Shown here one piece after another: positions 23,769-40,650 of a DNA stretch of 64,000 nucleotides. Source of the DNA: an uncultured Verrucomicrobiaceae bacterium (GTDB taxonomy: Bacteria; Pseudomonadota; Gammaproteobacteria; Pseudomonadales; CAMLJR01). The translations under genes were made by a program, and so were the position numbers. Under the pieces are notes generated by a model that saw nothing but the letters and a program-made list of their open reading frames with translations, was not told the DNA's origin and ran no database searches. Position 1 is the stretch's first letter, and each line of letters begins with the position of its first letter. The stretch spans positions 71,312 to 135,311 of the forward strand of contig CAZWBA010000008.1 of NCBI GenBank assembly GCA_964631955.1, in the 5' to 3' direction.

Positions 23769-24236
23769 ATGGCAGCGATATCCAGACCCGACATCGAAAC
23801 CCCCGCCGATATCGATCTGCTGGTCGAAACGTTCTACAAAAAATATGTCCTCGACGATCCGGTCATCGGCTTTTTCTTCACCGACATCGCGCACATCGAG
23901 CTCGACCGACATCTGCCGAAAATCAGCGCATTCTGGCAACTGCAATTACTCGGCAGGATCGGCTACAGCGGACAAACCTTCGTCGCCCATCGCGACCTGC
24001 ACACGCAGGCTCAACTGACGGAGGATCATTTTCATCGGTGGCTGCATTTATTCGAGAAAACCATCGACGAACTGTTCAGCGGCCCGCGCGCGGAAACTGC
24101 CAGACAGCGCGCTCGCACAATTGCACGCTCGATGCAGCGCGCACTCGCCAATAAACCGATCTCAGAGGAACGCATGGAGGAATTGCGTGGCGTGCAGCAT
24201 GTCGCCGCGCGCCGGCAACAGAAGAATCACGAGTGA
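23769..24236 (+). CDS. Group III truncated hemoglobin-like protein
   Basis: LVETFYKKYVLDDPVIGFFF...ISAFWQLQLLG...YSGQTFVAHRDLH...HFHRWLHLFEKTI resembles the trHbIII (Ctb-like) pattern. Recognised from memory only. Confidence 0.7.
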   Translation: MAAISRPDIETPADIDLLVETFYKKYVLDDPVIGFFFTDIAHIELDRHLPKISAFWQLQLLGRIGYSGQTFVAHRDLHTQAQLTEDHFHRWLHLFEKTIDELFSGPRAETARQRARTIARSMQRALANKPISEERMEELRGVQHVAARRQQKNHE

Positions 24237-24263: not shown

Positions 24264-24899
24264 CTACCAGCCTCGCGGCAGCGCCTTGCGCAAAATGATC
24301 GCGCCCGTGGTCTGTTCGATATAACCGCCAATCGCCAGTTCGCGCATGATGCGGCTGACCATTTCCCGCGATGCACCCACCATATCCGCGATCTCCTGAT
24401 GCGTTAATTTCAGCGCGGCGGTTTCACTCTCGGCTGATCGCTGCTGCAACAGATTGGCGACACGCCCATACACATCGAGCAAGGCCAGATCGCGTACACT
24501 GCCCGTGAGCGAGCGAATACGGCGGGCCATGCCGCGCATCATGGCGATCGCTGCACCATTTTCACCTTTCAGAAATTCGTGAAAATCCTGCTGAGAAATA
24601 ATCTGGAGCACGGTGGGTGCAACGGTAATGACCGATGCCGAGCGCGGCGCGCCGTCGATAAGCGCGAGTTCGCCAAAATAATCGCCGCCTTCGAGCCAGC
24701 TCAGCACCACCTGCCGGCCATCGTCACCATTTACGAACACCTTCAGATTGCCCGACACCACGATATAAAAATTATTGTGCGTGTCACCTTCGGTGACGAT
24801 GATCGAATTCTTGGGGTATTTATACTGCTTGGCACAACGCAATAATTTATCGGCCGCACCGTCGGAGAGCTCGGAAAACAGATCGATTTTTTTTAACAT
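24264..24899 (-). CDS. Crp/Fnr-family transcriptional regulator with a cyclic-nucleotide-binding domain
   Basis: cNMP cassette GDYFGELALIDGAPRSASV and C-terminal HTH THQEIADMVGASREMVSRIMREL. AAGGAG lies 5 nt before the ATG at 24899. Confidence 0.9.
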   Translation of the reverse strand: MLKKIDLFSELSDGAADKLLRCAKQYKYPKNSIIVTEGDTHNNFYIVVSGNLKVFVNGDDGRQVVLSWLEGGDYFGELALIDGAPRSASVITVAPTVLQIISQQDFHEFLKGENGAAIAMMRGMARRIRSLTGSVRDLALLDVYGRVANLLQQRSAESETAALKLTHQEIADMVGASREMVSRIMRELAIGGYIEQTTGAIILRKALPRGW

Positions 24900-24947
24900 G
24901 TCGGCTCCTTGTGTGGCCCGATTGTACAAACTATCAATCGCGTATTA

Positions 24948-24969
24948 AACCGTCCTCATCACAACGGTT
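24948..24969. promoter_or_regulatory. Inverted repeat AACCGT-N10-ACGGTT in the divergent crp-like/cyclase control region (candidate operator)
   Basis: aaccgtcctcatcacaacggtt has perfect 6-bp arms and lies in the 107-bp divergent intergenic region. Confidence 0.25.
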
Positions 24970-25006
24970 AAATATCCGTTCTCAACACCACAGGATTGCA
25001 TTATCG

Positions 25007-27013
25007 ATGCCGCAGCGACGCGAACTCATGCCACTCAAATCCGCCATCGCGATTTTATGCGCTGCGGCGGTGCTGCTGCTTTCACCACCCGGGCTGCAGC
25101 TCGAAGAAAATTTCGGGTTGCGATTATTATTTGCCTTGCGCGGCGAACGTCCCGCTCCCGATGCCGTCACCATCATTGCGCTCGACGAGGAAAGCAGCGC
25201 AATGCTGTCGTTACCCGATCTCGATCAGCTGGAGCGCTGGCCGCGATCGGTTTACGCGAAACTCATCCGCATTCTCGCCGATAACGGCGTCGCGGTCGTG
25301 GCGATGGATATCGCCTTTCTGGCAGCGGGCGATTCCGCTGACGATATCGCACTCGCCAATGCCATGCGTGCAGCTGGCAATGTGGTTATTTTAAAAATGC
25401 TCGATCGTGTCGACCCCGAAGCGGGCGCCGGCCCGCTGACCGAATGGCAGCTGCCACCGCTCGATCTGTTCGCCGACAATGCCGCTGCGGTAGGCGCGTT
25501 CACGCTTCCCGATCATGCAATAAAAAAATACACCACGCTGTTTCCGGATACGCCCGAAGGCACGGAGGCGGCCATGCCTCTGCTCGCACTGCAAATCCAT
25601 TACGGCGCAGCGCATGCGAAATTACCCGGCCTGCTCGACGATATCGGCGAACCGGTGCTGGCACAGCAGTTGAGAGAAAAACATAACGCAGCGCTATCGG
25701 CCGCGCGACTGCGATCCGCGCTTCTGCAAAACTCCTCCCTGGCCAATGCATTGATCGAAACAGCCGGCGACTCGCTAACCGAATCCGAGCGTCGGCAGTT
25801 GAAAATATTGCTGCAGGCCTATCGGGCACCCGATCCGATTTATCTCAACTTTTACGGCCCGCAACGCACCATTCGCACCCTGTCGCTCAGCGATGTGTTG
25901 CGCAACTCCGATGCCGCTGAAGTCAACGCTCTGCGCGGTCATGCCGTTTTCATCGGTTTATCCGAACGTTTGCACAAGCAGCGGGATTATTTTTTCACCG
26001 CTTATTCGAACGATCGCGAAAATCGCATCAGCGGCGTCGAAGTGGCTGCGACACTTTTTGCAAATTTGCGCGACAACCAGGTACTGCACGCAGCGCCCAC
26101 GTGGATCCAGCTGATGTTACTGTTCGGTTGGGGCGGAATATTATTCGTTACGGCGCAACGCCTGGCAGCAACGCAATGGCTGCTGCTCACTGCAGCATTC
26201 ACGGCTGCCTACGCGTTTCTCGCACTGTGGCTATTTGCACATTACGCTCTATGGCTGCCCATATGCATTCCACTCGCAATTGCGACACCCGCGTTAGCAC
26301 TCCTGGCCATTTGGCATTACTACCGCGACATGGCTCGATCCGAACGCGCGGTCGCCGACGCACTGAGTCTTTATGTTCCTGCGGATATTGTCGTCGCAGC
26401 GCGTACGAACCGCGATCGATTACTCAACGAACATCGTCAGATCGAAGCATTTTGTCTGCTCACCGACATCGTCGGCTTTACCGCACTTTCAGAGCAACAT
26501 TCACCCGAATACATGCATGACCTCATGAACCGTTATTACAGTGAAATCGTTGCGGCCATCGAGCGCCAGAGCGGCTTCGTCGCCAATATCGTTGGCGATG
26601 GATTGCTCGCCTTGTGGCCTAATTCAGATTCTTCGGGGATAATTCGCAGCGATAATATGCAAAAACTGGCGACCACCGTTTGCCGCACCGCGCTCGATAT
26701 CGTCGACGCGAGCGATCGCATGAGCAAAGCGGGCGAATCGTTGAAAACCTGCATCGGCATTCATTTCGGACCACTATCGCTCGGTCATCTCGGTGCGGGA
26801 CAACATTTCGAATACGCCCCGGTGGGCGACACGATCAATACGACTGCGCGCGTCGAATCGAGCAACCGGCAACTGAATTCGCGCATCCTGATCAGCGAAA
26901 CCGTGCACGAATATTTATCGGGTTTCGAAGTGCTCGATCATGGCAAGGTAACACTCAAGGGCAAGCGTGAAGCGCTCGCACTTTACGAACTGCTGGCAGA
27001 GAAAAAACACTGA
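25007..27013 (+). CDS. CHASE2 sensor-domain class III nucleotidyl cyclase
   Basis: N-terminal TM, then LRLLFALRGERPAPDAVTIIALDEES (CHASE2), a cluster of three or more TM helices, then the cyclase domain LLTDIVGFT...NIVGDGLLALW...GDTINTTARVES. Confidence 0.9.
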   Translation: MPQRRELMPLKSAIAILCAAAVLLLSPPGLQLEENFGLRLLFALRGERPAPDAVTIIALDEESSAMLSLPDLDQLERWPRSVYAKLIRILADNGVAVVAMDIAFLAAGDSADDIALANAMRAAGNVVILKMLDRVDPEAGAGPLTEWQLPPLDLFADNAAAVGAFTLPDHAIKKYTTLFPDTPEGTEAAMPLLALQIHYGAAHAKLPGLLDDIGEPVLAQQLREKHNAALSAARLRSALLQNSSLANALIETAGDSLTESERRQLKILLQAYRAPDPIYLNFYGPQRTIRTLSLSDVLRNSDAAEVNALRGHAVFIGLSERLHKQRDYFFTAYSNDRENRISGVEVAATLFANLRDNQVLHAAPTWIQLMLLFGWGGILFVTAQRLAATQWLLLTAAFTAAYAFLALWLFAHYALWLPICIPLAIATPALALLAIWHYYRDMARSERAVADALSLYVPADIVVAARTNRDRLLNEHRQIEAFCLLTDIVGFTALSEQHSPEYMHDLMNRYYSEIVAAIERQSGFVANIVGDGLLALWPNSDSSGIIRSDNMQKLATTVCRTALDIVDASDRMSKAGESLKTCIGIHFGPLSLGHLGAGQHFEYAPVGDTINTTARVESSNRQLNSRILISETVHEYLSGFEVLDHGKVTLKGKREALALYELLAEKKH

Positions 27014-27101
27014 ATATGTGCACGATGCTGACCGAATAATTTTTCAGCACGCGAACGGATTTTTCCAGACTCTTACGACTTGCAAGGAAGGGGTCTCCCC
27101 G

Positions 27102-30100
27102 ATGAAACAACGTCAATTGCATTCGCGAAAAAAATTAGGCGCGATTTCATTCCGACATTTAATCAACACACGCAGCTGTCTGTTCATCGCGTTAAATCTG
27201 GCGATGGGTTTATCTCACGCCGATTGCGACAACGCAGCCGGGCGCCTTGAAAGCAGCGAAGGCAAGGTGACTATCGAGCAGAATGGTCAATGGCAGCCGC
27301 TGGCAATTGGTAGCTGCGTGCCGACGAATGCGCGCATACAGGTGAGTGACGGCCGCGCCGTCTTTCGCCTCGCCAACGAAACTCTGCTGCGCACCTCCAG
27401 CTCTACCCTGCTGCGCTTCTCCGCGCCTCAGGAAAAAAGCTGGATTCGCCTGTTCGATGGCATTCTGCATTTCATCACCCGCACGCCCCATGCTTTCGAT
27501 GTAGAAACCGATTACGTCAACGCCGGTGTGAAAGGCACCGAATTCATGCTGACCGCCAATCGCGCAGAACAGTACGGCGAAATCGTCATGCTCGAAGGCG
27601 AAGTGCTCGCGAGCAACAAGCGGGGGCAACAGCAGATTCGCAGCGGTGAAGCGATCATTGCGCGCAGCGGCGAGGCGCCCCGCATTTTCACGGTTCCGAG
27701 CCTGCGCAATGCTGTGCAATGGACGCTCCATTATCCCCCGCTTCCGAATTCATCGCCGCGCTTTCAATCCGCGCTCACTTATTTGTATCGCAACGATGCA
27801 GCCGCCGCCCTGAGCGAACTGGAAAAACTGTCTATCACCGAACACGATGCCGATTACTTTGCTCTGCTGGCTGCGATTGGCTTACATCGCGGTGAAATCA
27901 CACCGGCACGCAATGCCATTGGCAGCGCGCTGGCATTGCAACCCGATCACGCGCAAACCCTGGCACTGAATTCAATCGCTGAACTGGTTATCGGCAATCA
28001 TGCAGAAGCCAAGCGCCTTCTCGATCGCGCGAACGATTCACGCAGCTCCGCAGCATTGATCGCTCGCTCCTATCTCCAGCAAGCGCAATTCGAATTGGCA
28101 GCTGCATTAACTAGCGCACAGCAGGCGGCCAGTCTCGATTCGAATTCCCCACTCATACAAGCACGCATCGCCGAGCTGTCACTCATGACTGGCGATATTT
28201 CGCAGGCGAGACAATCCGCGCGTAACGCGATTGCCCTGCAACCCGAATACGCCCGCGCCCACACTATCGCGGGTTTCGCGTTTATGCAGCAACTTGAATT
28301 CGATGAGGCCGAAACCGAATTCAAACGCGCCATTGAACTCGACGCAACTGACTCCCTGCCGCGATTAGGATTGGGGTTAATTCAAATACGCCACAATCAC
28401 GTGAGCGAAGGTCGCGAACAACTGGCGATTGCCGTCGCTCTCGATCCGGGGCAATCGTTATTGCGCAGTTATTTGGGCAAGGCGTATCAGGAAGAAAGTC
28501 GCGAGCGATTGGCGAGCGATCAATATGCACTGGCGAAAACTTTCGATAGCGCCGATCCGACACCGTGGCTGTATTCCGCGCTGCTCGCACAAGTACAGAA
28601 CCGCCCGTTCGATGCACTCGATGATTTAAATCGCTCGATCGAGCTCAACGATAATCGCGCGGTTTATCGCTCGCGTTTGCAACTCGATGCCGACGAAGCC
28701 ACGCGCACGGCAAGTCAGGCGGAAATCTATCGCGAATTGGGGTTCGACACACTCGCACAACGCGCCGCCGCGCGCGCTGTCAGCACCGCACCCAGTGAGC
28801 ATGGTGGTCATCGTCAATTGGCTGAAGCTTACGCAGACAACCCTCAATACGATGCCGCACGCGCAAGCGAAGTTCTGCAAGCACAACTTCTACAACCGCT
28901 CTCCGCAACACCGATATTGCCGCTGCTTGGCGAAACCAATTTACTCGCTATCGAAGGCGCAGGGCCTTCGGCATTAGGCTTTCGCGAATACAACGCGATG
29001 TTTGTGCGCGAAAAACCGTGGCTTTCTGTTTCCGGATTAGGCGGTAGCAACAACACCGGCGCAGGTGAGGTTTCGTTGAGCGGTGTTTATGATCGATTTT
29101 CGTATGCAGTGTCCCAATATCATTATGAAACGGCTGGCTATCGCGACAATAACGATGCGCGTTACGACGTAACATCTGCTTATACAAAATTCCAAGCAAA
29201 TGAGCATATTTCTTTTTTATTACAAGCAGCGAGTAGAGAAGAAGATCGCGGCGATTTAAATGAAAGTCTATTGAGCGATCAAGAGCTGCCATTTATTAAT
29301 GTCGAGAATAAAATCGACTCCGTCTTACTAGGTAGCCATGTGAAAATTTCATCCGACATTGATGTACTAGCAACTCTGGGATATCAAGATGGTAAATACA
29401 AACAACTTACACGCATTCCTCTTTTAGACGTCACTTTCGATCAAGACCAAAATACTTCTAATGCCGAAATTCAAACACAAATTAGCAGCAGAGTCGGGCG
29501 CTTTACGGTTGGTGCTGAATGGGTTGAAACAGACATCAAGATGCTAACTCGCAACACCACATCCGATCCAATTCTCCAGCTTTTTTTGGAACCGCAAGTT
29601 ACGGCAGATGAGACAGACTTTTATCGCACAGGTTATGGCTATTGGTCTTTATCACCCTTCAAGCCATTGGAGTTCACTCTTGGAGTGGCCTACGCGGAAC
29701 TTGATGCGGATGCATTTACGAAAAAGCTCTCCGGGTGGTATCCGAAAGCGGCCATAGTTTATCGTCCAGATTCGGCTCTAAGCTTGCGTGCGGCCTATTT
29801 TCAATCGTTAAGGCGACCTTTCGCTGACGAACAGACGTTAGAACCAACTCAACTTGGCGGATTCAATCAACTCGTAGATGAAACAGAAGGTATCGAATCA
29901 GATCAATACGCTGTTGGATTCGATTTCGATATGGGTTATGGCCATCACCTCAATGGAGAAATTCTCACAAGAAAATCGGCAATACCTTTAGTAGATCCAA
30001 TCGATGGTTTTCTGCGAAGCGATGCAGAGCAGAAATTGGGCTCAATAGCCTGGAGTTGGAGCGCCGATCCCTGGGCAATATCATTAAAATATCTGTATGA

Positions 30101-30470
30101 AAAAGATGAGTACGTAGAGGATGACCAATCATTCGAAGGAAAACCTTCCCCTCTTACGACTCATCGCTTACCGTTTCGAATTCAGTGGCAATCTAAGGCC
30201 GGCTTGTCGATATCGGCAGTTACCACTTATCTCGACCAGAAAGCAGAATTTGATAGAGGTCTAACTAAAAGAAGCGAAAGCTTTACGCTATTCGACATCG
30301 TGGCGAGCTACCCTTTTTGGAATCGCCGCCTTGAAGCAGAATTTCGTTGCAACAATTTATTTGTTAAATCATTTACCTATCAAAATATCAACCTTTATGA
30401 TCCGTCACCGAGACTGTCACCGTACATCCCTGAGAGGACTTTTCTTGCTGGGGTCAAATTTAATTATTAA
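27102..30470 (+). CDS. Secreted FecR-domain / multi-TPR / C-terminal outer-membrane beta-barrel fusion protein (1122 aa)
   Basis: Signal peptide ...FIALNLAMGLSHA. FecR-like LLRFSAPQEKSWIRLFDGILHFITR...VETDYVNAGVKGTEFML. At least 6 TPR-like repeats (ALQPDHAQT.., ALQPEYARAH.., AIELDATDS.., ALDPGQSLL..). TonB-dependent-receptor-like barrel strings LSLRAAYFQSLRRPFADEQTLEPTQLGGFNQ and the terminal ERTFLAGVKFNY. AAGGAAGGGG lies before the ATG at 27102. Confidence 0.8.
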   Translation: MKQRQLHSRKKLGAISFRHLINTRSCLFIALNLAMGLSHADCDNAAGRLESSEGKVTIEQNGQWQPLAIGSCVPTNARIQVSDGRAVFRLANETLLRTSSSTLLRFSAPQEKSWIRLFDGILHFITRTPHAFDVETDYVNAGVKGTEFMLTANRAEQYGEIVMLEGEVLASNKRGQQQIRSGEAIIARSGEAPRIFTVPSLRNAVQWTLHYPPLPNSSPRFQSALTYLYRNDAAAALSELEKLSITEHDADYFALLAAIGLHRGEITPARNAIGSALALQPDHAQTLALNSIAELVIGNHAEAKRLLDRANDSRSSAALIARSYLQQAQFELAAALTSAQQAASLDSNSPLIQARIAELSLMTGDISQARQSARNAIALQPEYARAHTIAGFAFMQQLEFDEAETEFKRAIELDATDSLPRLGLGLIQIRHNHVSEGREQLAIAVALDPGQSLLRSYLGKAYQEESRERLASDQYALAKTFDSADPTPWLYSALLAQVQNRPFDALDDLNRSIELNDNRAVYRSRLQLDADEATRTASQAEIYRELGFDTLAQRAAARAVSTAPSEHGGHRQLAEAYADNPQYDAARASEVLQAQLLQPLSATPILPLLGETNLLAIEGAGPSALGFREYNAMFVREKPWLSVSGLGGSNNTGAGEVSLSGVYDRFSYAVSQYHYETAGYRDNNDARYDVTSAYTKFQANEHISFLLQAASREEDRGDLNESLLSDQELPFINVENKIDSVLLGSHVKISSDIDVLATLGYQDGKYKQLTRIPLLDVTFDQDQNTSNAEIQTQISSRVGRFTVGAEWVETDIKMLTRNTTSDPILQLFLEPQVTADETDFYRTGYGYWSLSPFKPLEFTLGVAYAELDADAFTKKLSGWYPKAAIVYRPDSALSLRAAYFQSLRRPFADEQTLEPTQLGGFNQLVDETEGIESDQYAVGFDFDMGYGHHLNGEILTRKSAIPLVDPIDGFLRSDAEQKLGSIAWSWSADPWAISLKYLYEKDEYVEDDQSFEGKPSPLTTHRLPFRIQWQSKAGLSISAVTTYLDQKAEFDRGLTKRSESFTLFDIVASYPFWNRRLEAEFRCNNLFVKSFTYQNINLYDPSPRLSPYIPERTFLAGVKFNY

Positions 30471-30490
30471 AGAATGATGTAGGTATGTCC

Positions 30491-30514
30491 GCCTCCACGT
30501 ATTCACGTGGAGGC
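30491..30514. terminator. Perfect 10-bp stem-loop between convergent genes
   Basis: gcctccacgt-attc-acgtggaggc. No U-run, so its role as a terminator is inferred from position only. Confidence 0.45.
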
Positions 30515-30525
30515 ATGACAAATTA

Positions 30526-30921
30526 TCACTGGCAAAACGCTGCACCGGGTATGACGTAAGCGCGTCCATTAACGATGATGAAATAACATTGCGGACTGCC
30601 ATGATATTTAGTAATCGAGATATCCGACATTTGTTCAACCTGAACTTTATGCCCCGGTCGGAAAATTGGACATACATCGGATGATTTAGGATCTGTGCTG
30701 CATTTATCCCCGATCGGCTTCCCAGCACTGTCCTTAATAACCAATTCGCCATCCGCTTTAATCGTAAAAGTCACTTCCTTAAGCGGAGTAGGTTCCTCAG
30801 GCTTTGGCGGTCGTTCAGGATGCCCTTTCTCCACAGCACATGCCGTCATACTTAATAAAACCAACGCTACTGAAGCTGTACTTTTAAAACAACGCCCCCA
30901 GAAATTCGGTAAGACACTCAT
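30526..30921 (-). CDS. Small lipoprotein of unknown function (131 aa)
   Basis: Signal peptide plus lipobox-like VLLSMTAC, a Pro-rich tether EKGHPERPPKPEEPTPLK, and four further Cys. AGGGAGAA RBS. AT-richer than the backbone. Confidence 0.7.
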   Translation of the reverse strand: MSVLPNFWGRCFKSTASVALVLLSMTACAVEKGHPERPPKPEEPTPLKEVTFTIKADGELVIKDSAGKPIGDKCSTDPKSSDVCPIFRPGHKVQVEQMSDISITKYHGSPQCYFIIVNGRAYVIPGAAFCQ

Positions 30922-31050
30922 TACATTTCTCCCTTTTGCAACCGGTCAATAATTAACTGCTTTGTTAAATCGAAAAATAGAAATAGCAACAACGCACAGC
31001 ACTCAAGCAAAACGTGCTGCGCGAATCATAATGGGAGAACACTTATGTGG

Positions 31051-31794
31051 CTATGGATTCTTATTGAATGCTAATGGATGACGTGAACGTAATGTGATGC
31101 CGTCTTCGTTACGCAGACCCCAATGCGTATACCAGCCAGCAGGACTGGGATTGTAAAGCGAGACATATAAGTTCGGCGAAATGGAGCGGCGCACAACGAA
31201 TCGATAGCCGGTTTGCTCGTCATCCAGCTGCATAACTGAAAAATTAAAAAATCCCGCCGTATCGCTCACTGTCGTCATCGAATAAACGGCGGGCATGCTG
31301 GTTGGGTGGTAATAGCAAAGAAGGGGCTGAAATATCGCTGGATTATTGCCGAGCAATTGTCTGAATGATGTATTGGAAAGCGATTTTGCCGCAGCAGCAA
31401 GCAATTCGAAGCCAGGCACATTAGGTAACTGTGCGATATCAGCAAATTGCGTTGCAGGCACATCGACAATGGACGTCGCCGCACTGGCATAAAGGTCGAC
31501 TGGCCGTAAACGTTCTAAAAACAATTTGCGGAAATTGCTCAAAACACTATCCGGCAAACTGGTCGCCAGAGTTTTCAAGGAAGCCACGATTTGCAATTCG
31601 ACCTGTGCGCCTGCTACCGAGACTTGCTGCAAGTCCTGAATACCCAATATACGACCGTGTATTTTTTGTCGCGGGTTGCATTGCGGCGCTAACTCCCGGA
31701 AGCTCTCGCGCTTTAGATTGTCGATCGTATCGGCGATCGGCGTCGACTTGACGACTTCAGGTGTTCGACTTGCTGCTGGAACGATCTGATTCAT
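31051..31794 (-). CDS. Hypothetical protein (247 aa), no signal peptide, no recognisable motif
   Basis: ORF open to the GTG at 31902, but AAGGAG sits 8 nt before the ATG at 31794 (MNQIVPAASRTPE...). I could not assign a family. Confidence 0.55.
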   Translation of the reverse strand: MNQIVPAASRTPEVVKSTPIADTIDNLKRESFRELAPQCNPRQKIHGRILGIQDLQQVSVAGAQVELQIVASLKTLATSLPDSVLSNFRKLFLERLRPVDLYASAATSIVDVPATQFADIAQLPNVPGFELLAAAAKSLSNTSFRQLLGNNPAIFQPLLCYYHPTSMPAVYSMTTVSDTAGFFNFSVMQLDDEQTGYRFVVRRSISPNLYVSLYNPSPAGWYTHWGLRNEDGITLRSRHPLAFNKNP

Positions 31795-32149
31795 GGCACT
31801 CACTCCTTTGCGATCTGTAGCGACAACTCCGTGTAAATACAACTCCGCAAACGAGATCCAAGCATGCCCTTCAGAAGATCGTTCCGCAGCGCAGTTATGC
31901 ACCAGCAGGTTGTGAAAAATTACCGAACCAGTCGCGCTCGAAGCCGGCCGAAAGGTAATAAATCACACGACCACCGCCATTTTCATACTGAGATGCGCTA
32001 CCGCCTCCGGTTACAGTGACCTAGTCGATAGGGATTCGGCCACAGGGTCGACAAGCAATTTGGAGCACGAATTGGATGTCGATGGACTGCATGGATGCCT
32101 GCACAGGGACGTGCCACACGGATCACGCCGATGCAAATTCTTTCCACAA

Positions 32150-32183
32150 TAAAAAAGGGTCGCACGAAGGCGACCCTTTTTTA
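32150..32183 (-). terminator. Rho-independent terminator after the cold-shock gene (bidirectional shape)
   Basis: aaaaaagggtcgc-acgaag-gcgacccttttttatt. Confidence 0.8.
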
Positions 32184-32224
32184 TTGCTGCCAATTGCCCG
32201 CCGCGAAGCGAGCAACCTCAGTAT

Positions 32225-32434
32225 TTAGATAACAGTGACGTTCTCAGCCTGCGGGCCTTTTTTGCCCTGGGTCACAGTGAACTGCACTTGCTGACCTTCA
32301 GCCAGGGTTTTGAAGCCGCCGCTGTTGATTGCGCTGAAATGTACGAATACATCGGGACCGCTTTCCGGAGTGATGAAGCCAAAACCTTTGGATTCGTTGA
32401 ACCATTTGACGGTGCCAGTGGTGGTGTTTGCCAT
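32225..32434 (-). CDS. cspA: Cold-shock protein, CspA family
   Basis: [36 protein letters not shown] with RNP1/RNP2 motifs. 69 aa. Confidence 0.96.
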
Positions 32435-32702
32435 GTCTATAAACCTGTAAAAATAAAAAAAGATGAATTCGATTTCTCGAAGCGCTAGCAATGGGAGGTT
32501 ACTGAGAGGTTAGCGAGGAGCGAGAGAACTGCGAGATACCGACGCTTCTAACTGGCCGTTTAATAACAAGCACACTGGTTAGCTGGTGCACAGCCTAACC
32601 GCTAACAGATATCTGTCAATCACTATTTTCACCTAGAAGCGATTTAGCGCGACAACCTGCCCTCACGCAGCATAGACTGAGCCCTCTATAAAGGACATCG
32701 CG

Positions 32703-38827: not shown

Positions 38828-39180
38828 GGGGGCGTTCTGGATTCGACGTTGGTAACAAAACCTGAGGTGCATGTCGTGATGGCAGCCAATCACGTAAATC
38901 CAAAGCTGCAATCAAATAGTCGCAAACGACGAAACGTACGCTCTGGCGGCTTAAGCCCGCCGGACAGTTGGTGATTGACGTCAGATAGAGAAACCAACTG
39001 TCATTTCATCTGACTCGCTATTCGGCTCGTCCGGCGCCGGATAGTTAAAACCCTACGGAATCGCGATTCACGTCCTGCCCGTTGGGCTGTGAAAAGTTAA
39101 ATTAATTAACGGAACCTAAACATGTAGAGCCAAAGGCGGAGAACTAGCGGACAGGGGTTCAATTCCCCTCGCCTCCACCA
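38828..39180 (+). ncRNA. ssrA: tmRNA (SsrA), tag peptide ANDETYALAA
   Basis: 5' GGGGGCGTTCTGGATTCGAC pairs with the 3' ...GGGGTTCAATTCCCCTCGCCTCCACCA (G3:U wobble, Ala identity). Resume codon GCA at 38922 and TAA at 38952 give GCA AAC GAC GAA ACG TAC GCT CTG GCG GCT TAA. Confidence 0.95.
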
Positions 39181-39190
39181 TCCAAAATGA

Positions 39191-39226
39191 AGGGCTAAGT
39201 GAATCAATCGCTTGGCCCTTTTTTCT
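39191..39226 (+). terminator. Rho-independent terminator after ssrA
   Basis: agggctaag-tgaatcaatcg-cttggccct followed by tttttt. Confidence 0.7.
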
Positions 39227-39264
39227 GTCTACTCGCTGTGTGTGCCACACAAATTGGCACGAAA

Positions 39265-39534
39265 ATGACCGCGACCGTCCCTCACACACTACTTCGAATG
39301 GTACTTTTTACTTTAATGTCGCTACCCTGCCGGTATCCTGCGCGCGTCTCATTGAAAACTAACAGCCGAACTCAGGCGATGAAACTCGCCGGGATTCTGG
39401 CTGACTTTTTAAGCAGCCTGGGGCACCAGAACTTAAAGCTCGAACAATTGCGACAGATTGCGGCTAGATGGTTACAGCGCTGGCCGCACGACAGGCTGCC
39501 GGGCATCTGGCGACTGCTGTGGCTTTCTTCATAA
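39265..39534 (+). pseudogene. Probable frameshifted, truncated N-terminal stub of a tyrosine integrase next to tmRNA
   Basis: Two frames together give ...LLR/NGTFYFNVA... and ...RVSLKTNSRTQAMKLAGILADF. This resembles the G-x-YYFR...SLKT-x-D-xx-A pattern of integrase N-termini. No catalytic domain follows. Confidence 0.35.
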
Positions 39535-39834
39535 CTTCAACACGTGAAATTTCTCCAATCTTTCAGCCGGGTTCTAGATAAGCGATCAATGGGAATCGCC
39601 CGGGTAGCCACCCAGTACCGCCAGAAATGCCTGGCCAACATCATCGTCATTCGCCACATAAAAAGCTGATTGACGCCCTCCTGGCATGACAGGTGCCGGC
39701 CGGAAAAACCGCCCAAGAAAACTTAAACTTTTATATAAAAATCAATAATATGCGTAAAAATTTAATCATCTTTTTTTGCAGCCAGACAGGGGCTAATTTG
39801 GTAAAACTCACTCCCATTCTGACGGAGAGAACGC

Positions 39835-40650
39835 ATGACTTTTCAGCAGCCCGATCATGTATTTTTAGAGGAAAAAGAATTTGTTTTGACCGAATTTTCT
39901 GCAGGACGGTTGTTCGATCCCGAAGCACACGGCTTCTCGCCCGGGCGTATATCAACAAGCTGCTATCGGGGTTACATGTGCGATTTTCGTATCTCCGATG
40001 ATCGTCTTTTCCTCGACACGCTCACTATTGCCAACAAGAGACCTCCAACCCTTGGCGTGATACGCGATGCGCTCATGTGGGGTGCTCACAGTATTCATCG
40101 CGAAAGCAGGGGTGTTCTTGAACGCAAGCTAAATACATTGAGCGACCTTTTCACTCCCCCGGAAATTTCTCGTGGCGATACGACAAGCCATTGGGCCTAC
40201 GATTATGCCGAATGGAAGATGCCTGTATTCAACGGCGTTACGCCGGAACAAGATCGTCACGCGGAGGAAACTTTCAAGGAGGGGGAGTTCGTATCTGCGA
40301 CCTTATCGTGGTCGCCCTCATGGCATGGCTATGACATCTACAGAAAGCTGGCATTTCCGCTGTCTTACACCGGAGCTGTCCTGCTGGGAGCTAATAAACC
40401 AGATGATTTGTTTCAAATGACCGGTTGTGCCATGCCACAAGACTACGACATCGTGCTGCAGGTGGAGTTTGAGGAGGGGGCCGTAACCGCCTGCAAGGAT
40501 GTATCCGAAATTTTTGCGACGTTCCGCGCCCGATATGAGCGCAACATCTATGAGGACTACGACCTGGACTATACAGGCCCCTTTCCGGACTTACAGCGCA
40601 ATGGTCGCCGTTACCTGAAACGGCACCTGGCGCCCGGCTTCACCTTCTGA
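39835..40650 (+). CDS. Hypothetical protein (271 aa), orphan cargo of the tmRNA-adjacent islet
   Basis: GGAGAGAA RBS, intact ORF, no signal peptide or TM segment, no motif I recognise. Preceded by a very AT-rich spacer. Confidence 0.6.
   Translation: MTFQQPDHVFLEEKEFVLTEFSAGRLFDPEAHGFSPGRISTSCYRGYMCDFRISDDRLFLDTLTIANKRPPTLGVIRDALMWGAHSIHRESRGVLERKLNTLSDLFTPPEISRGDTTSHWAYDYAEWKMPVFNGVTPEQDRHAEETFKEGEFVSATLSWSPSWHGYDIYRKLAFPLSYTGAVLLGANKPDDLFQMTGCAMPQDYDIVLQVEFEEGAVTACKDVSEIFATFRARYERNIYEDYDLDYTGPFPDLQRNGRRYLKRHLAPGFTF

Follow-up and report, generated by a model that had tools for sequence, protein, structure and literature searches.

The closest described counterpart of the locus analysed here is found in Sinorhizobium meliloti, where the outer-membrane receptor NsrA is required to perceive a proteinaceous signal (PMC7529298, PMC13001267). 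The signal activates CHASE2 cyclases and then acts, via cyclic AMP (cAMP), through the Crp-like regulator Clr, and the loops of the NsrA barrel were described as the sole surface-exposed part of the receptor (PMC7529298, PMC13001267). Here we describe an NsrA-like receptor gene in a 64,000-nucleotide (nt) stretch of a gammaproteobacterial contig (CAZWBA010000008.1, positions 71,312 to 135,311). This whole stretch is called the window. The receptor consists of a FecR domain, a TPR region and a C-terminal barrel; its gene follows a CHASE2 cyclase gene and is followed by the genes of a small Cys-rich lipoprotein (the partner) and of a protein of 247 amino acids (aa). An earlier interpretation made from the letters alone (the sequence-only reading) had noticed a sharp drop in G+C content (GC) inside the receptor gene. 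It had taken the barrel and the two genes beyond it for a block of different origin, joined in frame to the FecR-TPR half. Based on the comparison with related loci, we consider it probable that the seam is instead the left edge of a hypervariable allelic cassette in a conserved five-gene signalling module, which is exchanged by recombination.

The relation to NsrA was followed at several levels. A tblastn search of plasmids with the full receptor gave no match at 1e-5, and the N-terminal half at E <= 1 led to a rhizobial NsrA locus. There, an Ensifer open reading frame (ORF) of 1216 aa with FecR and TPR domains lies immediately upstream of a CHASE2 cyclase and matches the receptor (BLASTP E = 7e-14 over FecR and TPR). 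This ORF is 71% identical to the annotated nsrA adjoining cyaK (CP140934.1). Profile-profile alignment by hhalign of 109 members of the receptor family with 4 NsrA orthologues, one of them an annotated nsrA, gave a probability of 100% and E = 2.8e-39 over 996 columns including the barrel (query 47-1109, template 24-1196). The family members were gathered via the clade alignment; a search of the genome collection with the single protein gave no confirmed relative. As judged from these alignments, the receptor is a full-length distant homologue of Sinorhizobium NsrA. Apart from this homology, the locus shares with the NsrA-CyaK/CyaD1/CyaD2-Clr system the FecR-TPR-barrel layout, a receptor gene adjoining a CHASE2 cyclase gene and a Crp-family regulator. 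In contrast, only about 19-23% of residues are identical to NsrA, the cyclase gene lies before the receptor gene rather than after it, and the Crp-like gene lies inside the cluster. The rhizobial nsrA has no small partner downstream, where cyaK abuts. It also shows almost no seam in GC at third codon positions (GC3; 0.81 to 0.74 at most), and the N- and C-terminal halves are congruent among the four orthologues.

The fold of the barrel is that of TonB-dependent transporters such as FpvA, BauA, PqqU, FhuA and BtuB, the barrels of which are classic receptors for phages, colicins and pyocins. The AlphaFold2 model of the receptor (predicted local distance difference test score, pLDDT, 90; predicted template modelling score, pTM, 0.87) comprises a signal helix, a FecR beta domain (aa 45-197), a TPR solenoid (aa 219-597), a linker and a barrel (aa 640-1121), to which DSSP assigned 22 strands. 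The top 50 Foldseek matches of this model were all TonB-dependent transporters (E about 1e-16). Pfam TonB_dep_Rec_b-barrel was matched at E = 1.4e-14, and the C-terminal residue is aromatic as in these transporters. In contrast to them, the modelled barrel is plug-less: the Plug domain (PF07715) gave no Pfam match in the receptor at E <= 0.01, and no plug fold was seen in the model. A TonB box is likewise absent, a periplasmic FecR-TPR arm of 600 residues is present instead, and the receptor is paired with a CHASE2 cyclase rather than with TonB-ExbBD. Since the plug domain is missing, we do not class the receptor as a TonB-dependent transporter, and its role is presumably signalling rather than transport. 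Two barrel loops of 28 residues each, aa 904-931 (nt 29811-29894) and aa 1085-1112 (nt 30354-30437), are among the best-conserved parts of the barrel. The first (QTLEPTQ..GFNQ) is conserved family-wide, while conservation of the second was measured in the close clade only. Both loops may fold into the lumen and replace the absent plug.

A comparable pattern of variation is associated with the pyoverdine/fpvA region of Pseudomonas aeruginosa. Near-identical strains are said to carry deeply diverged alleles of the receptor and its cognate neighbour there; the region reportedly has a lower GC with atypical codon usage, and its allele tree reportedly disagrees with the genome tree. At our locus, the border of exchange would instead lie inside the receptor ORF past strands 4-5, and each event would create a chimeric receptor gene with its frame intact. 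What co-varies with the receptor is a single small (lipo)protein and not a biosynthetic cluster, and the receptor is predicted to feed a cyclic-nucleotide pathway. In Campylobacterota, a CHASE2 cyclase, an outer-membrane protein with a FecR domain and a TPR protein are clustered, and horizontal movement was inferred (PMC9239204). These clusters, compared here by description only, contain the same set of domains together with a CHASE2 cyclase. However, FecR and TPR belong to separate proteins there, a phosphodiesterase is added, and neither a cassette nor a compositional seam is described (PMC9239204). The phenomenon as such, a hypervariable surface-receptor locus, is of an already known kind. 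As far as the searched literature shows, the cassette in the NsrA family, the partner protein and the recurrence of the junction across phyla are new.

Replacement of the barrel and partner gene in related loci

The receptor was compared in segments among 24 close relatives, with aa 40-635 as N half and aa 636-720 as junction segment. Incongruence between genealogies was judged from identity matrices of the N half, junction segment, barrel, partner, 247-aa gene and cyclase; relatives are given below by protein (P) and locus (L) numbers. The cyclase, N half, junction segment and 247-aa gene were mutually congruent, whereas the barrel and the lipoprotein gene were incongruent with them. Barrels of clade members were 32-69% identical where the N halves were 69-98% identical. 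The N halves of P0017 and P0020 are 97% identical and their barrels 49%; for P0025 and P0028 the values are 98% and 46%. Similar barrels were found across these lineages, with 68% identity for P0017/P0028 and 64-67% for P0020 against P0025 and P0029. L002 and L086 combine partner proteins of 73% identity with barrels of 39%. In the N half, P0014 shares 84-88% identity with the window protein and P0013, compared with 33-35% in the barrel. Within the barrel, mean pairwise identity was 0.68-0.78 in strands 1-4 versus 0.28-0.57 in strands 5-22. Strands 1-4, termed the left anchor, are already AT-richer (rich in Tyr, Asn and Asp) yet are inherited along with the N half.

The replacement was seen most directly in nucleotide alignments. 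L085 and L087 share 97-100% identity over 15.6 kb, interrupted by a block at L085:~12100 to ~13845 with 40-65% identity. This block comprises the barrel from residue ~700, the stop codon, the spacer and the entire lipoprotein gene, and identity returns just upstream of the lipoprotein start codon. Synonymous divergence (dS) between the two contigs was determined per segment: cyclase, 0.048; N half, 0.147; junction segment, 0.149; 247-aa gene, 0.132. It reached 2.64 (saturated) in the barrel and was saturated in the lipoprotein gene as well. The pair L088/L089 is 88-100% identical (150-nt windows) and drops to 47-65% from aa ~692 (L088:~2850); the L089 contig ends before the right border. Between the window and L002, identity is 70-85% up to ~29240 and 40-50% up to ~30920, followed by a spacer rich in insertions and deletions (indels) and by 70% identity in the 247-aa gene. 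Identity change-points of six pairs were found at aa 708 (P0012/P0014, P0012 being a database protein identical to the window receptor), 695 (P0013/P0014), 708 (P0025/P0028), 710 (P0017/P0020), 713 (P0018/P0024) and 718 (P0012/P0032). They span nt 29184-29253, corresponding to strands 4-5 of the model.

In-frame recombination at the junction, as postulated by the sequence-only reading, is thus directly visible in L085/L087, in L088/L089 and in L002 compared with the window and L001, and the alignment with related loci that it had proposed revealed barrels swapped in sister lineages. Its further claim, a separate origin of everything beyond the seam, is borne out as a separate history of the barrel and the lipoprotein gene and fails for the 247-aa gene. 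The latter is 95% identical between L085 and L087, occurs in all close relatives and has a tree congruent with the N half and the cyclase; it is vertically inherited and lies outside the cassette. As judged from these comparisons, the barrel from strand 5 onwards and the partner gene have their own, recombination-driven history within the family, and the lipoprotein gene moves along with the variable block. As a separate observation, dS of the cassette flanks in L085/L087 (0.13-0.15; L085:10001-12100 and L085:16059-16808) is about three times that of the cyclase. Such raised values would be expected from hitch-hiking with an old polymorphism or from co-import.

The allele of the window itself was examined in the same way. 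The nearest relative of its barrel is P0013/L001 (67-69% identity) and the same holds for its N half (83-86%), while the window lipoprotein is 87-88% identical to that of L001. When the two halves are compared separately, which the sequence-only reading had put forward as a check of its claim, they share one nearest neighbour, so there is no swap to be seen in the window genome. Among the window, L001 and L002, the odd allele is carried by L002. The window differs from L001 by a dS of about 1.0-1.1 in the N half and cyclase and of 1.8 in the barrel. All members of the clade have the seam. Because it is common to them and the allele is shared with the closest relative, the seam in the window is, by this comparison, inherited and not a fresh event.

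Architecture and base composition across the family

Searches with the N half of the receptor gave more than 600 homologues in Gammaproteobacteria, Alphaproteobacteria, Desulfobacterota, Verrucomicrobiota and others, nearly all of about 1100 aa and of the same FecR-TPR-barrel architecture. An exhaustive HMMER search with the cassette alone (aa 701-1122) gave 1321 relatives. Its full-length matches are proteins of about 1050-1160 aa (with one exception of 1765 aa), matched in the C-terminal barrel region, typically at about residues 700-1130. From these searches, the architecture is ancient and the kin of the barrel all fall within the same family. Since the architecture is old and the relatives of the barrel are found only inside the family, the gene did not arise by grafting on a foreign domain. 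A domain-level chimera of unrelated halves is therefore not tenable: the architecture occurs in homologues across phyla, and the search with the barrel alone returned nothing but this architecture. In distant members the barrel diverges faster than the N half, with about 25% versus 40% identity. Sharing of cassettes across phyla was considered and rejected, as distant barrels are only 23-28% identical to that of the window and thus less so than their N halves. The same comparison suggests that diversification runs within lineages.

Base composition was then followed over the window. In 300-nt segments, GC changed from 0.53-0.59 over 27.1-29.1 kb to 0.39-0.45 over 29.1-31.0 kb. The two 1-kb bins at 29-31 kb (0.437 and 0.436) are the lowest of the 64, the next lowest being 0.483, and the lowest-GC stretch of 1.9 kb in the whole window is 29201-31100 (GC 0.433; z = -5.1 against the other windows of this size). 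A maximum-likelihood fit of two change-points to the whole window delimited a block from 29070/29101 to 31550/31669, with GC of 0.44 inside and 0.548 outside. The sequence-only reading had placed the drop near 29.08-29.2 kb at the start of the barrel, which agrees with the left border of this block, and its five counts of G+C per 60 nt (39, 26, 21, 24 and 30) are exact. Across the seam, GC3 changes from about 0.55-0.68 to 0.31-0.46. The step expected at about 29.1 kb is present in GC3 too, though preceded by a gradual sag from about 28.6-28.8 kb, and a single change-point is best placed at aa 566 (about 28.8 kb). Total GC thus shows a sharp seam and GC3 a less sharp one. These measurements confirm the AT-rich step, and no other compositional feature of the window is as extreme.

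As a control for the coding content, expected GC3 was computed from the codon preferences of 21 other long ORFs in the window. For the cassette, 0.36 was observed versus 0.62 expected from its amino acids (z = -10.8), and this deficit of 0.26 is present within almost every synonymous family. The lipoprotein gene shows 0.39 observed versus 0.63 expected. In the 247-aa gene the depletion is mild (0.49 versus 0.65). Of the AT-rich block that had been proposed to include both downstream genes, the lipoprotein gene is thus clearly depleted and the 247-aa gene only mildly so. First and second codon positions (GC1 and GC2), which reflect the amino-acid composition of the barrel, account for about half of the total GC drop in the window. 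Because GC3 lies far below the expectation from composition, amino-acid content is ruled out as the full cause of the AT-richness; expression level is ruled out because the composition shifts inside one gene.

The lower GC1 and GC2 of the barrel half recur in essentially all 71 family loci and give a baseline difference in total GC of about -0.03 to -0.07. A drop in GC3 of more than 0.10 was found in about 17 of the 71, belonging to different orders. Significant GC3 change-points at positions equivalent to window aa 650-745 were detected in at least 16 loci from Gammaproteobacteria, Desulfobulbales, Alphaproteobacteria and Competibacterales. In L003, L015, L027 and L042 the low-GC block begins at the barrel and extends about 470 nt beyond the stop codon. 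The Desulfobulbaceae pair L015/L027 shows, at the equivalent residue, a fall in GC3 from about 0.8 to about 0.4 and a rise in the proportion of synonymous differences (pS) from about 0.35 to 0.6-0.86. The small gene downstream has a low GC3 as well, and the gene after it returns to 0.72. This small gene encodes a relative of the window lipoprotein with the common motif Y-x-[GS]-[SN]-P-x-[CW]...I-N-G-x-x-Y-[VY]-I-P. By search with an iterated profile, the barrel gene is immediately followed by a partner relative in 24 of 63 loci from several phyla.

The partner family is small and fast-evolving, has a C-terminal motif like KY-x-GSP-x-C...ING-x-x-Y-[VY]-IP and is covered by no database family. 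Its members include L015:3146-3385, L027:11309-11551, L042:11269-11694, L054:11240-11557 and L058:5126-5482, among others, and the Desulfobulbaceae partner is apparently without a signal peptide. The AlphaFold2 model of the window partner had a pLDDT of 48 and was unusable for a fold search.

Proposed mechanism and alternative explanations

According to the reading that we favour, the FecR-TPR part and barrel strands 1-4 would be inherited vertically with the cyclase, while strands 5-22 and the adjoining partner gene (~29.2-30.95 kb) would exist as many deeply diverged alleles, swapped among related lineages through homologous recombination. With crossovers in the conserved region of strands 4-5 and upstream of the partner gene, the reading frame would always be kept. 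The barrel, possibly together with the partner, would serve as an outward-facing sensor and signal via TPR and FecR to the CHASE2 domain of the cyclase. The output, cAMP or cyclic GMP (cGMP), would be read by the adjacent Crp-like regulator. By analogy with NsrA-CyaK-Clr, we infer that the module is a trans-envelope sensor. Transporter-fold surface barrels are typical targets of phages and bacteriocins. Allele diversity could be upheld by selection on the surface receptor, exerted by phages or bacteriocins or arising from differences in ligand specificity; this would amount to diversifying or frequency-dependent selection on the cassette.

The cassette GC3 tracks the GC3 of the host (r = 0.73, slope 0.61), yet it is 0.07-0.27 lower in all 11 clade loci. 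As it follows the host but stays lower, a long residence combined with a persistent local downward pressure on GC is indicated. A bolder proposal, which we offer as speculative and hold to be rather doubtful, is that strands 5-22 and the partner form a self-contained, swappable recognition module of trans-envelope cyclic-nucleotide signalling. The partner would sit in or on the plug-less barrel, and swaps would re-tune sensing (or attackability) at strain level while the FecR-TPR arm and the cyclase remain constant. The AT-richness would then be the footprint of a long-lived balanced polymorphism without internal recombination. If true, this would be a modular sensor-head system extending from Gammaproteobacteria to Desulfobacterota that is undescribed for the NsrA family.

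Several observations weigh against an exchanged cassette or narrow its scope. About 40 of the 71 family loci have no GC3 step. Since most family members lack it and the rhizobial nsrA has almost none, the behaviour of the cassette is lineage-dependent. For the window itself no recent swap is demonstrable from the alignments: both halves have P0013/L001 as nearest neighbour, and dS against L001 is already about 1 everywhere (1.8 in the barrel), so that two histories are indistinguishable in this pair. Barrel and partner types do not always go together, as L087 has a partner like that of L088 and a barrel like that of L089. The segment-wide dN/dS (the ratio of nonsynonymous divergence, dN, to dS) of the barrel is 0.1-0.18, indicating purifying selection. 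The short external loops are least conserved (0.06-0.31), but strands vary too. With variation spread over strands and loops and two long loops conserved, the pattern fits old alleles and gives no direct sign of surface selection. For the AT-richness, two candidate causes are compatible with an exchanged cassette. A GC-favouring effect of recombination may be lost in a block that is too diverged for internal recombination and exchangeable only as a whole, or the block may have circulated through a gene pool of somewhat lower GC. Finally, all comparison sequences are metagenome contigs or metagenome-assembled genomes, and taxonomy and same-species pairing were inferred from nucleotide identity alone.

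Four other explanations were weighed against recombinational exchange. The barrel and lipoprotein gene might have no separate history and simply evolve faster in place, under AT-biased mutation, relaxed constraint or positive selection. This would suit the family-wide faster barrel (63-76% versus 76-89% identity in rhizobial NsrA) and the pair of window and L001, where barrel dN is 2.5 times that of the N half and dS only moderately higher. The tracking of host GC3 by the cassette is also what a long residence predicts. However, in contigs that otherwise share 97-100% identity, dS rises more than 18-fold across the junction, which point mutation cannot achieve in one segment alone. Barrel alleles are moreover shared across lineages against the tree of the flanks, and the borders are sharp and the same in independent pairs, so we regard acceleration in place as improbable. 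Quite unlikely, too, is the version closest to the sequence-only reading, in which a single transfer or recombination in this lineage fused a foreign barrel and two foreign genes onto a native FecR-TPR gene as a one-off chimera. The sharp fall of GC and GC3 at a domain boundary, leading into the most AT-rich block of the window, speaks for it, and in-frame replacement at the junction does occur in relatives. It is contradicted by an architecture kept in more than 100 homologues across phyla and shared by all full-length relatives of the barrel, and by the seam in all clade members, the N halves of which are 69-98% identical to each other. The two halves also share their nearest neighbour, the 247-aa gene is vertical, and the block lacks an integrase, a tRNA and flanking repeats.

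A purely coding origin of the seam, with AT-rich codons required by the barrel residues (Tyr, Asn, Asp, Lys, Phe and Ser) or codon selection specific to the domain, is very unlikely. Amino-acid and codon effects are a partial contributor only: they are visible in the lower GC1 and GC2 of essentially all 71 loci and in about half of the GC drop of the window. Opposed to them as the whole cause are the GC3 value 0.26 under expectation, the equal GC3 of both halves in most family members and the extension of the depletion into a non-barrel lipoprotein gene on the opposite strand. Hardly credible is an artefact of assembly or binning, in which the contig joins reads of two organisms at a conserved stretch. 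All sequences are metagenome-derived and the junction lies beside a conserved segment prone to mis-joins, but the gene order, the intact frame and the seam at the same residue are found in more than 10 independent assemblies from different projects. In addition, the L085/L087 block has near-identical flanks on both sides, unlike a simple join of two organisms.

Some specific mechanisms were rejected. A classical genomic island or transferred island is not indicated, since there is no integrase, no tRNA lies within 20-40 kb apart from a transfer-messenger RNA (tmRNA) gene about 7 kb past the block, no flanking repeats were found beyond short ones at chance level, and the synteny of the module is conserved. 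Gene conversion from silent cassette copies within the window was dismissed after tblastn found no such copies. A diversity-generating retroelement was set aside, as the diverged stretch of 1.8 kb contains indels and is saturated at synonymous sites.

The five-gene module and its significance

The coordinates of the module and of the cassette are collected in Table 1.

Table 1. Genes, cassette borders and intergenic elements of the receptor locus (positions in the window)
Feature	Position	Strand	Evidence
Crp-family cyclic-nucleotide-binding transcription regulator, first gene of the module	24264..24929	-	NCBIfam CRP E = 1.8e-36
Inner-membrane CHASE2 sensor fused to adenylate/guanylate cyclase	24911..27013	+	Pfam CHASE2 1.6e-32, Guanylate_cyc 2.8e-22
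NsrA-like outer-membrane receptor, 1122 aa	27102..30470	+	Pfam FecR, TPR, TonB_dep_Rec_b-barrel; AlphaFold2; Foldseek; hhalign
Left anchor, barrel strands 1-4 (aa 640-700)	29019..29201	+	Identity profile, segment matrix
In-frame recombination junction (putative), aa 695-718, strands 4-5, left cassette border	29184..29255	+	Identity change-points
Variable cassette (strands 5-22 of the barrel, aa 701-1122), the coding segment with the highest AT content in the window	29202..30470	+	GC3, identity, dS
Perfect 10-bp hairpin GCCTCCACGT-ATTC-ACGTGGAGGC between the convergent receptor and lipoprotein genes	30491..30514	.	Intergenic sequence
Cys-rich partner lipoprotein, 131 aa, lipobox LLSMTAC	30526..30921	-	No Pfam/NCBIfam match
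Indel-rich intergenic region, right cassette border	30922..31050	.	Unalignable with L001/L002; identity back at about 31060
247-aa protein, function not assigned; right flank outside the exchanged unit	31051..31794	-	Congruence, dS

The order and orientation of the five genes are kept in nine independently assembled related contigs with differing outer flanks. A gap of 88 nt separates the end of the cyclase gene from the receptor start, an adjacency kept in every close relative (9 related contigs), and the cyclase evolves congruently with the N half of the receptor. The same 212-aa Crp-family gene is found upstream of the cyclase in L001 and in L083-L086. The two genes downstream of the receptor had been called orphans in the sequence-only reading. 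This name does not fit, as both are kept beside the receptor in all close relatives; scans of Pfam and NCBIfam gave no family match for either the partner lipoprotein or the 247-aa protein.

Two listed gene starts are probably too far upstream. The receptor ORF as listed begins with a GTG at 26967, inside the end of the cyclase gene. Judged from the database protein and from the signal peptide, the true start is probably the ATG at 27102, giving 1122 aa and leaving 26967-27101 as an extra stretch. The cyclase likewise probably starts downstream of its listed GTG. The hairpin between the convergent genes is a possible bidirectional terminator candidate, judged from its sequence; a consensus terminator scan made no call at 30491-30514, where a T run is absent.

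Further features were observed in and around the module. L002 has a second, diverged partner paralogue (L002:6925-7383, +; E = 1e-18 against the clade profile), which separates the first partner from the 247-aa gene and is located in the spacer corresponding to the indel-rich region of the window. In the same interval between partner and 247-aa gene, L085:14120-15901, L087:6884-8665 and L088:4962-6689 contain an extra gene of 575-593 aa without a domain match. A phage-type integrase follows straight after the 247-aa gene in L083 (L083:15413-16210, +), and the outer right flank of the module is fluid. On the other side, a 155-aa ORF past the Crp-like gene (23769-24236, +) is found at the same position in L001 (85% identity) and L086 (66%), and it may be a sixth member of the module. 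Its homologues in L001 and L086 have no Pfam match on record. A perfect 17-nt inverted repeat with A/T runs at 32147-32186, downstream of a cold-shock protein gene (32225-32491, -), resembles a bidirectional terminator. Genes for tmRNA are frequent insertion sites of islands. The one in the window (38828-39180, +; tag ANDETYALAA) is followed by a lower-GC bin (39001-40000, 0.487) and is unrelated to the cassette.

CHASE2 cyclases have no known outer-membrane input other than NsrA-type receptors, and what these receptors recognise is debated. At the locus described here and in its relatives from several phyla, the surface-exposed barrel and a small, hitherto unrecognised partner form a hypervariable unit, which recombination exchanges at a fixed in-frame junction past strands 4-5. 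The cassette points to the part of the receptor that carries specificity, and its natural chimeras may be used for domain-swap experiments. The partner protein is a new candidate component of the system. For compositional scans, the locus is a clear instance in which a GC3 step within a gene marks a recombination boundary rather than a recent foreign insertion, which helps in their interpretation. It may also be useful for testing whether the absence of recombination lowers GC.

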